From IMG/VR virus record IMGVR_UViG_3300027804_000001, positions 32,001-96,000 of that record: a DNA stretch of 64,000 bases; one strand, 5' to 3'. A program made the translations under genes and the position numbers. The stretch's first letter is position 1; each line of letters begins with the position of its first letter. The stretch is from a virus (lineage: Duplodnaviria; Caudoviricetes). Positions 22,235 through 32,548 of the stretch are shown piece by piece. Below the pieces are notes generated by a model. The model saw only the letters and a list, made by a program, of their open reading frames with translations. It made no database searches and was not told the DNA's origin.

Positions 22235-22307
22235 GGGCCGGATGTCAATGGCAGACCACCTGATTTGCAATCAGAGTGAATGGGTTCGATTCCCAACGCG
22301 TCCACCA
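22235..22307 (+). tRNA. tRNA-Ala(TGC), atypical acceptor stem
   Basis: Anticodon loop TTTGCAA, G3:U70, encoded CCA; C:C and G:G mismatches at pairs 5-6. Confidence 0.7.
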
Positions 22308-23233: not shown

Positions 23234-23307
23234 GGTTTCTTGGTGTAGTGGCCTAACATGCCTCCCTGTCACGGAGGAGACCACGGGTTCGAATCCCGTA
23301 GGAACCG
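23234..23307 (+). tRNA. tRNA-Asp(GTC)
   Basis: CCTCC-CTGTCAC-GGAGG, G73. Confidence 0.95.
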
Positions 23308-23310
23308 CAA

Positions 23311-25893: not shown

Positions 25894-26127
25894 ATGTATT
25901 TAACATTTCACATTATCTGTATCATTTATTGTATGTATCAACTAATAAAAAAATACAATAAATTATCAAATCCCGGTATGATTGGTGTATCTCCTGGTTT
26001 AGAGACCATTATGGTCATTGTATTAGCTCCTGCACTTGCAATTGTTGATGTATCATTAACATGGATTCGTTGGTATAAAGAAGCCGAAGAAGCTAGAAGA
26101 AGAAATGACGAAAGAAAAATTTTTTAG
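25894..26127 (+). CDS. Small membrane protein
   Basis: 77 aa; stop codon abuts tRNA-Ser. Confidence 0.65.
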   Translation: MYLTFHIICIIYCMYQLIKKYNKLSNPGMIGVSPGLETIMVIVLAPALAIVDVSLTWIRWYKEAEEARRRNDERKIF

Positions 26128-26212
26128 GAGAGTTACCCAAGTTGGTGAAGGGGGCAGTTTGCTAAACTGTTAGGGTGTTAAAGCCGCGAGGGTTCGAGCC
26201 CCTCACTCTCCG
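26127..26212 (+). tRNA. tRNA-Ser(GCT)
   Basis: GCAGT-TTGCTAA-ACTGT, long variable arm, G73. Confidence 0.93.
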
Positions 26213-26217
26213 CAAAT

Positions 26218-26387
26218 TGTAGTGTGTTGAAAAACGATTGACACGCGTGTCAATCTGGCAGACAAGCCCTCCTGTCTCGGGGGTGTGGATAACGAAATAG
26301 ATTGGTAATATGGGGTAGACCACCATCCTGCAGGAATGTGTTATCAATTGAATCGCCTCGTGGATGGTTCGAATCCTCCCACTACAG
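26218..26387 (+). ncRNA. 170-nt expanded tRNA-Asp(GTC)-like RNA
   Basis: Acceptor TGTAGTG/CACTACA + G73; anticodon arm CCCTC-CTGTCTC-GGGGG; GGTTCGAATCC T-loop; hairpin insertions in D-loop and variable region. Confidence 0.7.
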
Positions 26388-26415
26388 CTAAAATAATTAT
26401 AGTAAATGAAATGAA

Positions 26416-26877
26416 ATGAAACAATTTAGAACTCTCTATGGGACAAATATTCCTAACTTGATTGAGTATGTTAGAGAATACATCTCAACAAGAGAGAACG
26501 TAGAAATTCTCATCGGATCTGACTCACAATGTTATGGAAATAAGAAAACCATTTATGGTGTTGTAATAGCATTATATACACCAGGGAAAGGTGCACATGT
26601 TTTATGTACTCGTGAGACAACTTCGATGGAATATAATACACCATCTAGATTGTTAAATGAGGTTTGGAAATCTATTGAAATTGCGGAATGGTTAAAAGAA
26701 AATGGATTACCTAAACCTACATGGATTGATATTGATTTAAATCCTGACCCAAAGTATAAATCTAATTCCGTATTAAGACAGGCAGTTGGTTTAGTCGAGG
26801 GTATGGGATATAAAGTTAGGTATAAACACTTAGGTGCGTTAACAACATATGCTGCTAATCATTTAGTACGTATTTAA
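26416..26877 (+). CDS. YkuK-like RNase H-fold protein (DUF458)
   Basis: ILIGSDSQ, RLLNEVWKSIEIA, IDIDLNPD, AANHL motifs. Confidence 0.75.
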   Translation: MKQFRTLYGTNIPNLIEYVREYISTRENVEILIGSDSQCYGNKKTIYGVVIALYTPGKGAHVLCTRETTSMEYNTPSRLLNEVWKSIEIAEWLKENGLPKPTWIDIDLNPDPKYKSNSVLRQAVGLVEGMGYKVRYKHLGALTTYAANHLVRI

Positions 26878-27134: not shown

Positions 27135-27970
27135 AATCGGAAACGATAAGTTCTTTGACTAAAAATATTGGCCGCCTATGGTCATTAAATAAACTGTGAA
27201 AGCAGTATAAAGTGAATCTGAATTAGTTATTCAGGTTTGCGGTTTCAGAAATGGAACTTGAGTAGGCAAGCGGGATATCATCGAACCTTAAGTACTGAGG
27301 GTGACACTTTAGGGAAAGTGGTTTGGTGACCAAGCGATACCGGTCGTTTGGTTGAGGTGGGAACACCAATAAGAATAACTCGTAGAATTATTGTAAAAAG
27401 TATGGTCTCCAACTATACAATTGCGTGATTCAATACAATGGGAATCTTAAAACCGAAAGGTATGGTGATGTACAGGTGGTGCTGTTATTATCCTTGATTT
27501 GAATCTACCAAGATTCTTATCTCGAAGGGGTCCAAAAGTATGGAGGTAGGGATATCTCAGAGGGTAGTTTAGTATCGTGTTGTTCAAAAGATGACATGTC
27601 TGGTGACGAGCCACTACCTTCCAAATCGGTAACTAAAATCATTTTGTTAATTTTGGTTTAACAAACTTAAATACAAAAGGAAAAGTGCTCGTCAGTCGTT
27701 AGAGACAGGTGACTACATAGTCGTGAGGGGTTCACGGCCACAAAGGGTCCCAAGCCCAATGTGAATTGTAAGAAAGTTCTCTAGTCCCGCAAGGATTAAT
27801 CGGGGTGGCAACCTCGAAGAGTAATGAGTAAGATGAGAGTATCTAATGACTTAAGGATTGGTTAATCTAATTGACCGTCACTGGTTGGTACAGTTCAAAA
27901 GACTGTGGATAAGAAAGGAAACAATAATCTTTCTAAAGTCAACTACTAAAACTTGTAATCTCAGAGTTTT
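27135..27970 (+). ncRNA. Large structured ncRNA, GOLLD-like
   Basis: About 830 nt without a credible ORF, GC-richer than flanks, many hairpins (ACC-GAAA-GGT, GGGGT-GGCAA-CCTC, CAGT-TCAAAAG-ACTG), ends ..TGTAATCTCAG..; size and tRNA-adjacent phage context fit GOLLD; family call from memory, not a model search. Confidence 0.65.
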
Positions 27971-31594: not shown

Positions 31595-32548
31595 TTAAGT
31601 ATATAAACGTGCTAAAGTTTTTAACCAAGCCAAATTCATAAGAGCACTTCCCGCATCGGCAATACCCGATGAATCATTACCATTTAACGAATTTAATTCT
31701 TCTTGTGATACAACACCACCTTGATTTATCATTTGACTAAATCTCGGGTCATTTGCTAATTGTTCTCTAAATTGAGAATCGGTTTGAAGTTTCTCTTGAA
31801 AAGATTCAAAATTTGGTAAACCAAAAATATCCAATATTCCATTAGCAATTATAAATTGTTTTATTAAGTTCCTTCTGTCTTTTCTACCAGTTCTAACAAT
31901 ATACCACCAATTTTTTATCCAGTTACTTGGTTTCTGTCCATTTTTTACAATGTATTTTGCAAGTCTTTCTTCTCTAAAAAAGTTTTTTATACCCATTGCA
32001 ACAGGACCCCCTCCTGTTAACATTTTTAATGTACTTGGAGCACCTTGTGCTGCAATTTCTTTACCCACCCTTTGACCGATTCTGGCTGGTTTCAATTTAG
32101 ACACTGTTGATTTTAATGAGTTAACAGCATCTAACATTTTTTGACCCCAACTAGAATTAACTTTATTTAAATTTTTAACTGTTCCTGTTACACCTGGATG
32201 ATCAAAATATTTTGACATTTTAATAAATTGTTCTTTAGCCGCGGGATTAGACATTAAATATTTTGCCATGTCATCACTACTACTTAATGCCGCTTTACCA
32301 ACAGGACCAGCAGATTTTAAAAACCTAATAAACGGTTTGGCAATAATATCACCAACAGTTGGTATTAATGCAATTAACATTAAACCCGCATAAATATATT
32401 CTTTTCTATAAAGATATAGACCAATTAATGCGATATCGGCAATTTCACCTATAACAGGTATAAAACCTGCAACCATTAATCCCGTTTCCCAACCATCTTC
32501 TTTAAGTAATTCTCTATTTTCTAATATTTGTTTTTTTGTTATTTCCAT
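31595..32548 (-). CDS. Hypothetical protein with pre-toxin-TG-like motif (possible virion/ejected protein)
   Basis: AGFIPVIGEIADIA ... LIPTVGD motif. Confidence 0.6.
   Translation of the reverse strand: MEITKKQILENRELLKEDGWETGLMVAGFIPVIGEIADIALIGLYLYRKEYIYAGLMLIALIPTVGDIIAKPFIRFLKSAGPVGKAALSSSDDMAKYLMSNPAAKEQFIKMSKYFDHPGVTGTVKNLNKVNSSWGQKMLDAVNSLKSTVSKLKPARIGQRVGKEIAAQGAPSTLKMLTGGGPVAMGIKNFFREERLAKYIVKNGQKPSNWIKNWWYIVRTGRKDRRNLIKQFIIANGILDIFGLPNFESFQEKLQTDSQFREQLANDPRFSQMINQGGVVSQEELNSLNGNDSSGIADAGSALMNLAWLKTLARLYT

Follow-up and report, generated by a model that had tools for sequence, protein, structure and literature searches.

Several RNAs join a tRNA-like acceptor and T module to a large extra domain and are handled by tRNA enzymes, namely transfer-messenger RNA (tmRNA), the bacterial Y RNA YrlA and the tRNA-like ends of plant viruses. 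In phage T4, two stable RNAs larger than a tRNA and of unknown function, RNAs C and D (species 1 and 2), lie in the tRNA cluster and are matured together with the tRNAs; they are not known from host chromosomes. The dimerisation initiation site (DIS) of HIV-1 and the loops of the phi29 packaging RNA (pRNA) are self-complementary sites at which RNAs dimerise through their loops. Here we describe a tRNA-shaped element of 170 nt in a 64,000-nucleotide stretch of DNA (hereafter, the window) from a virus of the Caudoviricetes, corresponding to positions 32,001 to 96,000 of the IMG/VR record IMGVR_UViG_3300027804_000001. The element is a phage copy of an uncatalogued family of tRNA-shaped RNAs common to Bacteroidota and their phages. 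The family has a body like that of a class II (tRNA-Leu-type) tRNA, an anticodon arm like that of tRNA-Asp and, as variable arm, a branched domain of 60–100 nt. That the element is a real, conserved and expressed RNA of this giant-armed family we regard as very nearly certain.

Relatives were sought in IMG/VR by three word or pattern searches. A 26-mer of the T arm and acceptor was found in 3 contigs, a 16-mer of the anticodon arm in at least 118 and a two-block pattern of the variable arm in 18; on inspection, all but two or three of the matches were true homologues. The phage set among the matches listed comprises 107 loci with 80 unique RNAs of 117–172 nt; it was partly gathered with a word containing the anticodon loop, and the 18 gathered without the loop agree on the loop sequence. 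A covariance model, R1, was built from an alignment of 78 relatives. R1 matched the window element with 144.8 bits (E 7e-42, model positions 1–148), and this was the sole such match in the window, the second best being a tRNA-Leu at 32.7 bits, followed by a tRNA-Tyr; genuine tRNAs scored at most 52 bits. Besides the full-length match to R1, the window copy has U1-A72, G73, the CCCUC/GGGGG stem, an NUCUC loop and the V1–V2 arm, all of them marks of the family.

As read from the window sequence, the element is a complete cloverleaf with a 7-bp acceptor stem and D, anticodon and T arms; a tRNA-Ser(GCU) gene (26127–26213) ends 4 nt 5' of it. Its parts, all on the plus strand, are as follows.

26218–26387, plus strand: whole tRNA-shaped RNA gene, 170 nt, from the R1 match, the homologues and a contig of an RNA run
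26218–26224 with 26380–26386, plus strand: acceptor stem, TGTAGTG with CACTACA (in RNA, UGUAGUG/CACUACA); positions 4–7 covary
26227–26265, plus strand: D arm, with a 3-bp stem of UUG (26227–26229) and CAA (26263–26265); the stem pairs covary
26236–26255, plus strand: D-loop hairpin of 20 nt, GATTGACAC-GC-GTGTCAATC (in RNA, GAUUGACAC-GC-GUGUCAAUC), between A14 and G18G19
26267–26283, plus strand: anticodon-like arm, CCCUC-CUGUCUC-GGGGG, with GUC at 26274–26276, U37 at 26277 and C38 at 26278
26285–26359, plus strand: giant variable arm, made of V1a, an AUAA bulge, V1b, an internal loop, V2 and a three-way junction
26285–26288 with 26356–26359, plus strand: V1a, GUGG/CCUC, with compensatory changes
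26293–26295 with 26353–26355, plus strand: V1b, CGA/UCG, after the 4-nt bulge AUAA, with compensatory changes
26301–26309 with 26340–26348, plus strand: V2, AUUGGUAAU/GUUAUCAAU, with compensatory changes
26312–26324, plus strand: Va, a predicted hairpin GGGG-UAGA-CC-A-CC in near-invariant columns
26326–26335, plus strand: tip of Vb, UCCUGCAGGA (in DNA, TCCTGCAGGA), a perfect 10-nt palindrome and candidate dimerisation site
26362–26379, plus strand: T arm, GGA(U)GG-UUCGAAU-CCUCC, with one bulged U in the window copy; 4 of 5 stem pairs covary and 100% of the cells are paired
26387, plus strand: discriminator G73, invariant

A preliminary description, made from the letters of the window alone, had proposed a 170-nt tRNA-Asp-like RNA with intact acceptor stem, G73, GTC anticodon arm and T loop, and these parts were borne out by the sequence and by R1. 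U8 and G9 are present in the window copy, and both are invariant or nearly so across the family. The D loop of the window copy shows A14, G18G19 (26257–26258) and the tRNA-Leu-like word GGCAGAC, and the T arm contains the word GGUUCGAAUCC, conserved in the family columns along with U8, A14 and G18G19.

The fold was confirmed by the pattern of changes among relatives. RNAalifold, run on 78 phage RNAs aligned with MAFFT, returned 34 pairs, 23 of them with compensatory changes. When 109 distinct sequences were aligned to R1, 97.8% of the cells were paired, against 78.4% in shuffles and 46–57% with slid partners, and 729 double-change cells were counted against 205 ± 15 in shuffles (0 of 500 shuffles reached the observed value); this alignment was fitted to R1 and so favours the structure, and the MAFFT-based count agrees with it. 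Seven of the eight helices covary, that is the acceptor, D, V1a, V1b, the two V2 segments and T. Even the short D stem has compensatory changes, its pairs being AU, UA or GC and UA, CG or UG in the family. The remaining helix, the anticodon stem CCCUC/GGGGG, is invariant in the 109 sequences save for one change from G-U to A-U.

In the window copy, 76 nt separate the anticodon and T stems. Between V1b and V2 lies the conserved internal loop AAUAG/UGAA, and V2 leads into a three-way junction with two branches, Va and Vb. Va repeats the D-loop words GGUAGAC. Most phage copies have it, as do 13 copies from cells, and some members are without it (L081, L113); its pairing shows no covariation, and the hairpin is a predicted fold. 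The preliminary description had already seen the variable region as large and structured, which stands, the arm being covarying throughout its V1a, V1b and V2 helices; the GATAAC/GTTATC helix that it proposed to close the arm is not kept in relatives and was abandoned in favour of these three. Further pairings were tried and rejected. The GUC loop might pair with the GAC of Va, but both are invariant, Va is absent from some members and, where present, closes more simply into a hairpin with a tetraloop. Another hairpin, AGACA/UGUCU, was dropped because the cell variants that have A34 or C34 show no compensating change, and a hammerhead-like UGAUGAG...CGAAA, present in some relatives, is not conserved and is without stem II.

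Assembled contigs of three metatranscriptome studies overlie the element. One of them (X1, 26136–26378, 243 nt, 0 differences) runs unspliced through the tRNA-Ser, the D-loop hairpin and the whole arm; the second (X16, 26257–26378) runs into adapter sequence and the third (X20) covers 26256–26378. All three end at 26378, 9 nt short of the predicted 3' end; at best, this hints weakly at an RNA end close to that position. In the same RNA runs, contigs were also found on other tRNAs, on the region of the GOLLD RNA and on the tmRNA. The RNA runs were without cover on the protein-coding bins near the element and the DNA run covered all bins, a difference that was not used as evidence. None of the RNA-run contigs joined sequences across the arm as splicing would. 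A joint of that kind, linking 26289 to 26361 with other letters between, turned up solely in a contig of a DNA run; it points to relatives from the same lake sample in which a different arm is set on this frame, and agrees with the modularity of the arm across the family.

The element escapes the usual tools. ARAGORN made no call on it, Rfam 15 (including RF00005 and RF00023), searched at E <= 10 on 26100–26500, returned only the adjoining tRNA-Ser and noise, and the blastn match to GenBank phages was limited to the tRNA-Ser portion. No description of the family was found in Rfam 15 or in the literature searched on GOLLD, tRNAs and phages and on variable-arm tRNA-like RNAs in Bacteroidetes. 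The failure of tRNA finders, together with an unremarkable single-sequence folding energy (z = -1.4), is what would be expected of a tRNA pseudogene in decay whose insertions arose by chance, or of a tRNA whose insertions are spliced out. Both possibilities had been considered in the preliminary description, which named a covariance model from homologues among its checks. Decay is contradicted by more than 120 unique homologues with compensatory changes in seven of eight helices, and splicing is contradicted by the RNA-library contig running unspliced across the whole element and both insertions, and by the lack of a joint across the arm in the RNA runs. We leave these explanations practically no probability.

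The D-loop hairpin belongs to the phage copies, occurring in 25 of the 80 unique phage RNAs and in none of the 45 from cells. About 20 distinct inserts are known at this place, all of which fold as hairpins, with visible compensatory changes; the 9-bp hairpin originally recognised at 26236–26255 is thus upheld by its relatives. In the window copy it has 9 bp and a GC loop, in effect 8 bp and a 4-nt loop. On the minus strand, 26236–26255 is followed by GTTTTTC and scores like an intrinsic terminator; as a general role of the hairpin this was rejected, the T-run being absent from relatives.

The tip of Vb likewise sets phage copies apart. It is a perfect palindrome of at least 8 nt in 59 of 78 unique phage copies, as compared with 12% of shuffles and 2 of 13 cell copies, and more than 20 different palindromes are found, e.g., GCCGGCCGGC, GCUUGCAAGC, UGCAUGCA and UUGUGCACAA. 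A perfect even palindrome is unable to close on itself over its full length, and the window tip, TCCT-GC-AGGA, is a perfect one of 10 nt, which corrects its earlier interpretation as a hairpin. Since self-complementarity is kept through sequence change, an intermolecular contact is suggested, and phage copies would form dimers via the palindromic tip.

To find copies in cells, a pattern omitting the anticodon loop was run against prokaryote genomes, one for each species; it also gave many chance matches. In all, 46 full-length copies in 35 loci were retrieved, every one in Bacteroidota (Cytophagales, Hymenobacter, Saprospiraceae, Cyclobacteriaceae, Aquirufa and one Bacteroidaceae metagenome-assembled genome), and tandem pairs with differing arms are frequent among them. 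In an even sample of Bacteroidota genomes, at least 13 of 151 had a match at E <= 1e-18, a lower bound, as few candidates were scored per genome. In 19 of the 35 cell loci, a divergent gene for a regulator of the Lrp/AsnC family lies about 150 nt upstream of the RNA; then come sufB and sufC. A chromosomal home in Bacteroidota makes a purely anti-defence reading of the RNA less complete. As a separate observation, a trailer word UU(U/A)GGUUAA(U/C)UG occurs 3–10 nt past the 3' end of the RNA in distant phage and cell members (L106, L113, L118 and many cell loci, e.g., L175, L185, L196 and L229) and is absent from the window copy.

Identity positions were counted in 125 unique copies, 80 from phages and 45 from cells. 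U1-A72 is present in 124 copies, G2-C71 and G73 in all 125, and U3-A70 is near-invariant; U35, C36 and C38 are invariant or nearly so across the family. The loop reads CUGUCUC in 80/80 unique phage copies; cell copies vary at positions 33, 34 and 37, with loops that also read CUAUCUC (6), CGGUCUC (5), CUCUCUC (2) and CUGUCCC (2), and in some of them U33 is lost. Position 37, canonically a purine, is U in the window copy and U or C family-wide. A normal tRNA-Asp lies elsewhere in the window (23234–23308, anticodon arm CCUCC-CUGUCAC-GGAGG), as had been pointed out before, and all 11 phage arrays with at least 20 tRNAs carry one as well. On account of the U33 loss, the changed wobble base, the pyrimidine at 37 and the normal tRNA-Asp in all 11 arrays, the RNA is probably not a routine decoder, in accordance with the preliminary description, which took it for something other than a simple decoder.

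It might be argued that the RNA is a working tRNA-Asp that decodes GAC and GAU for the phage, its U37 loop and bulky arms resisting host anticodon nucleases that cleave the tRNA-Asp of the host. GUC, U33 and C38 are indeed invariant in the 80 unique phage copies, the full elbow nucleotide set is kept, the anticodon arm is similar to the one in the normal tRNA-Asp of the window, and the gene is located among genuine tRNAs. We nevertheless find such an armoured decoder quite unlikely, in view of pyrimidine 37 and of the canonical tRNA-Asp in every complete array, of cell copies that vary at 33 and 34 and may lose U33, and of the chromosomal occurrence of the family in Bacteroidota beside a regulator gene.

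As for the amino acid, the strong determinants of bacterial tRNA-Asp are G73, G34, U35, C36 and C38 (PMC9976931), all of them present in the window copy and in 80/80 phage copies, with G34 replaced in 8 of 45 cell copies. Those of bacterial tRNA-Ser are G73, G2-C71, R4-Y69 and a large variable arm, and also C72 and C11-G24 (PMC9976931). The window copy has G73, G2-C71, A4-U69 and the 76-nt arm from the latter set; it has A72 in place of C72 and U11-A24 in place of C11-G24 (C-G at 11-24 is found in 28 of 109 members). A leucine identity is opposed by G73, which is an antideterminant for leucyl-tRNA synthetase (LeuRS) and, on a tRNA-Leu-type body, a known Leu-to-Ser switch (PMC9976931); the A73 of tRNA-Leu is replaced by an invariant G73 and only the D arm is Leu-like. 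The identity, if there is one, would thus be Asp or Ser, and from the nucleotides present Asp is favoured, because only aspartyl-tRNA synthetase (AspRS) accounts for the conserved U35, C36 and C38. Whether the RNA is aspartylated we judge evenly balanced.

Charging by seryl-tRNA synthetase (SerRS), as for tRNA-Sec and other long-armed tRNAs, would make the RNA a serine-derived carrier or a recoding tRNA. In 37 of the 107 phage loci a tRNA precedes the RNA by no more than 30 nt, and in 20 of the 27 unique arrays of this kind the immediate upstream tRNA is a tRNA-Ser; this neighbourhood, the Ser determinants just listed and the switch from Leu to Ser that G73 brings to a tRNA-Leu-type body (PMC9976931) all point towards serine. 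They have to be set against A72, against U11-A24 in the window copy, against a first arm helix of only 4 bp before the bulge and against the conservation of U35, C36 and C38, which is unexplained as SerRS ignores the anticodon. Serine charging appears to us distinctly improbable.

The reading we tentatively prefer, and to which we give somewhat less than an even chance, is that of an aspartate-type tRNA mimic acting off the ribosome as a carrier or decoy. Because the RNA lies 4 nt after a tRNA-Ser within a tRNA island, RNase P and the enzymes of tRNA 3' processing would excise it, and CCA would be added; with elbow and acceptor end intact, host enzymes would handle it as a tRNA. AspRS would be the likeliest charger, G73, G34, U35, C36, C38 and G2-C71 being all present. 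The RNA would act off the ribosome, as a carrier whose bound amino acid is used or converted or as a mimic occupying a host factor that binds tRNA-Asp. In phages, the palindromic arm tip would most likely join two molecules, and a D-loop hairpin is often added.

A stricter form of the second option is a decoy or sponge that binds a host factor reading the anticodon arm of tRNA-Asp (an anticodon nuclease, a modification enzyme or AspRS) and is never a substrate of a pathway. Sequence-specific recognition by a protein would leave the anticodon stem-loop invariant while other helices drift, as is seen; 37 of the 107 phage loci have the RNA by itself, free of tRNAs over about 5 kb (the other 70 have at least one), and the phage-only additions fit an infection-specific role. 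Such a decoy does not need the strictly conserved acceptor end, nor does it sit well with host-chromosome copies at a conserved place, often in tandem pairs, and no candidate target was identified; on balance we hold it to be unlikely.

As to what a carrier of the preferred aspartate type might do, U1-A72 and the AsnC-type neighbour suggest conversion of Asp to Asn, an idea that we put forward as possible though rather unlikely. Amidotransferases rely on a U1-A72 first pair (PMC9976931), and this mark of the substrate tRNAs of the amidotransferase GatCAB is found in 124 of the 125 unique copies. In the fullest form of the idea, AspRS would load Asp onto a dedicated off-ribosome carrier and GatCAB would read U1-A72 and convert Asp to Asn; in cells, the adjoining AsnC-type regulator would control expression of the RNA; and phages with AT-rich, Asn-rich proteomes would bear a dimerising version that, in the course of infection, raises the Asn supply or hijacks the circuit. 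These three steps taken together are, in our opinion, unlikely to hold. A comparison of the relevant enzymes covered 17 genomes with the RNA and 20 without it. In the RNA-bearing ones, asparaginyl-tRNA synthetase (AsnRS) exceeded the cut-off in 17/17, while glutaminyl-tRNA synthetase (GlnRS) was present in 15/17 and AsnA in 1/17; GatCAB is required for neither Asn-tRNA nor Gln-tRNA in most RNA-bearing Bacteroidota. No clean association of the RNA with GatB, AsnA, AsnRS, GlnRS or AsnB was found across the 17 and 20 genomes.

Several observations weigh against an aspartate-type carrier or decoy. GatB was found in 16/17 genomes with the RNA and in 17/20 without it, so that its presence does not discriminate; where both GlnRS and AsnRS are encoded, it is kept in 14/15 RNA-bearing and 4/7 RNA-free genomes, a weak difference confounded by clade, and an AsnB-type synthase occurs in 13 of the 17 RNA-bearing genomes. 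The identity of bacterial tRNA-Asp also requires G1-C72, G2-C71 and G10 (PMC9976931); the family has G2-C71, has U1-A72 instead of G1-C72, and has G10 in 9 of 80 phage copies, with U10 in the window. Variation at positions 33 and 34 would weaken recognition by AspRS in some cell copies. Recognition by AspRS leaves the invariant anticodon stem and U37 unexplained, and G73, the large arm and G2-C71 are equally the pattern of SerRS. In addition, no protein partner is common to all phage loci, where the neighbours vary by lineage, and the assembled contigs attest presence in RNA libraries rather than ends, strand or level.

The window is AT-rich (about 30% GC) and part of a large phage-like genome. 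Around the element lies a plus-strand island of stable RNAs, with 25 tRNAs called by ARAGORN plus GOLLD and tmRNA, the latter 3 kb from the tRNA-shaped element. The additional members are:

22235–22304, plus strand: tRNA-Ala(UGC), found by Rfam only at 29.7 bits, just over threshold, and missed by ARAGORN
27560–27967, plus strand: GOLLD RNA, Rfam model, 322 bits
29562–29955, plus strand: tmRNA, found by ARAGORN and Rfam, with the tag ATSNVAVA*

The tRNA-Ala(UGC) has G3-U70 and an odd D arm; when it is counted, all 20 amino acids are represented in the island. On the GOLLD region, contigs of the RNA runs lie very deep from about 27206, where the variable 5' half of GOLLD therefore probably begins. 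Among 11 array-bearing loci scanned, GOLLD lies within about 7 kb of the tRNA-shaped RNA in 7 and tmRNA in 6, which indicates that these phages share an island of tRNAs, tRNA-shaped RNA, GOLLD and tmRNA; in two loci the tmRNA is directly 3' of the tRNA-shaped RNA.

Among protein-coding neighbours, the commonest in phages are terminase, exonuclease, PhoH, the RNaseH-like PF04308 and metallophosphoesterase. In the window, an open reading frame (ORF) just downstream of the element (26416–26877) encodes a PF04308 RNaseH-like protein (DUF458, E 4e-16), whose homologues follow the RNA in 16 unique loci. Upstream, a 77-aa ORF without a Pfam or PHROG match (25894–26127) ends exactly at the start of tRNA-Ser(GCU), and its homologues are upstream of the RNA in 18 unique loci. 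An AGGA, GGAG or GAGG word was found at -20 to -4 in 4 of the 70 window ORFs of at least 100 aa, and the window proteome contains 6.8% Asn; scarce Shine-Dalgarno-like words and an Asn-rich proteome weakly fit an AT-rich phage of a Bacteroidota host.

The family would represent a new class of tRNA-derived non-coding RNA, in which a tRNA shape is combined with an ornate and conserved domain of 60–100 nt. It occurs in roughly a tenth of the sampled Bacteroidota and on more than 100 phage contigs, and Rfam 15 has no entry for it; since none of its members is recognised by standard tRNA and RNA-family tools, it also exposes a practical gap in annotation. It bears on the contents of phage 'tRNA islands', where the element sits beside GOLLD and tmRNA, on the off-ribosome reuse of tRNA identity elements and on the role of GatCAB in bacteria that already have AsnRS and GlnRS.

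Compared with described RNAs, the element shares with canonical tRNAs the 7-bp acceptor, the discriminator, a T arm of the GTTCRANYC type, the D-loop GG, U8 and U33, but its variable region of 76 nt exceeds their 4–21 nt and tRNA models miss it. The closest body is that of class II tRNAs (tRNA-Leu, tRNA-Ser, tRNA-Tyr and tRNA-Sec; RF00005), which have the same 7/5 acceptor-T branch and the same position of the extra arm. With tRNA-Leu in particular, the 3-bp D stem and its GAAUUGG(C/U)AGAC loop are almost identical. The arm of class II tRNAs, however, has 13–21 nt, against 60–100 nt with a bulge, an internal loop and a three-way junction in the family, which further differs by G73 in place of A73, by an Asp-type loop containing U37 and by U1-A72. 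With tRNA-Asp(GUC), the element shares G73, G34, U35, C36, C38, G2-C71 and a similar anticodon arm; it differs in U1-A72, U37, the class II body, the giant arm and the lack of a fixed G10, and coexists with a normal tRNA-Asp.

From the tRNA-Asn and tRNA-Gln of the indirect pathway (a non-discriminating AspRS with GatCAB), U1-A72, G73 and G34-U35 are found again, alongside GatB in 16 of 17 RNA-bearing genomes and, in cells, the adjoining AsnC-type regulator. Yet tRNA-Asn has U36 where the element, probably a non-decoder, has C36, and GatB is equally common in genomes without the RNA. A D loop without extra bases is a further mark of GatCAB substrates; that of the element is Leu-type and, in the window copy, holds a 20-nt hairpin.

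Like tmRNA (RF00023), YrlA and the plant-virus ends, the element is tRNA-framed, but it keeps full D and anticodon arms; in contrast to tmRNA and YrlA, it has U3-A70 instead of G3-U70 and is without tag frame, pseudoknots or Ro-binding stem. The short palindromic hairpin tip of Vb, changing in sequence and remaining self-complementary, recalls the HIV-1 DIS and the phi29 pRNA; here, the tip sits on a tRNA-shaped RNA, and dimerisation is suggested by its letters. In its setting within a phage tRNA cluster, lastly, the element is similar to RNAs C and D of T4, a likeness by description only.

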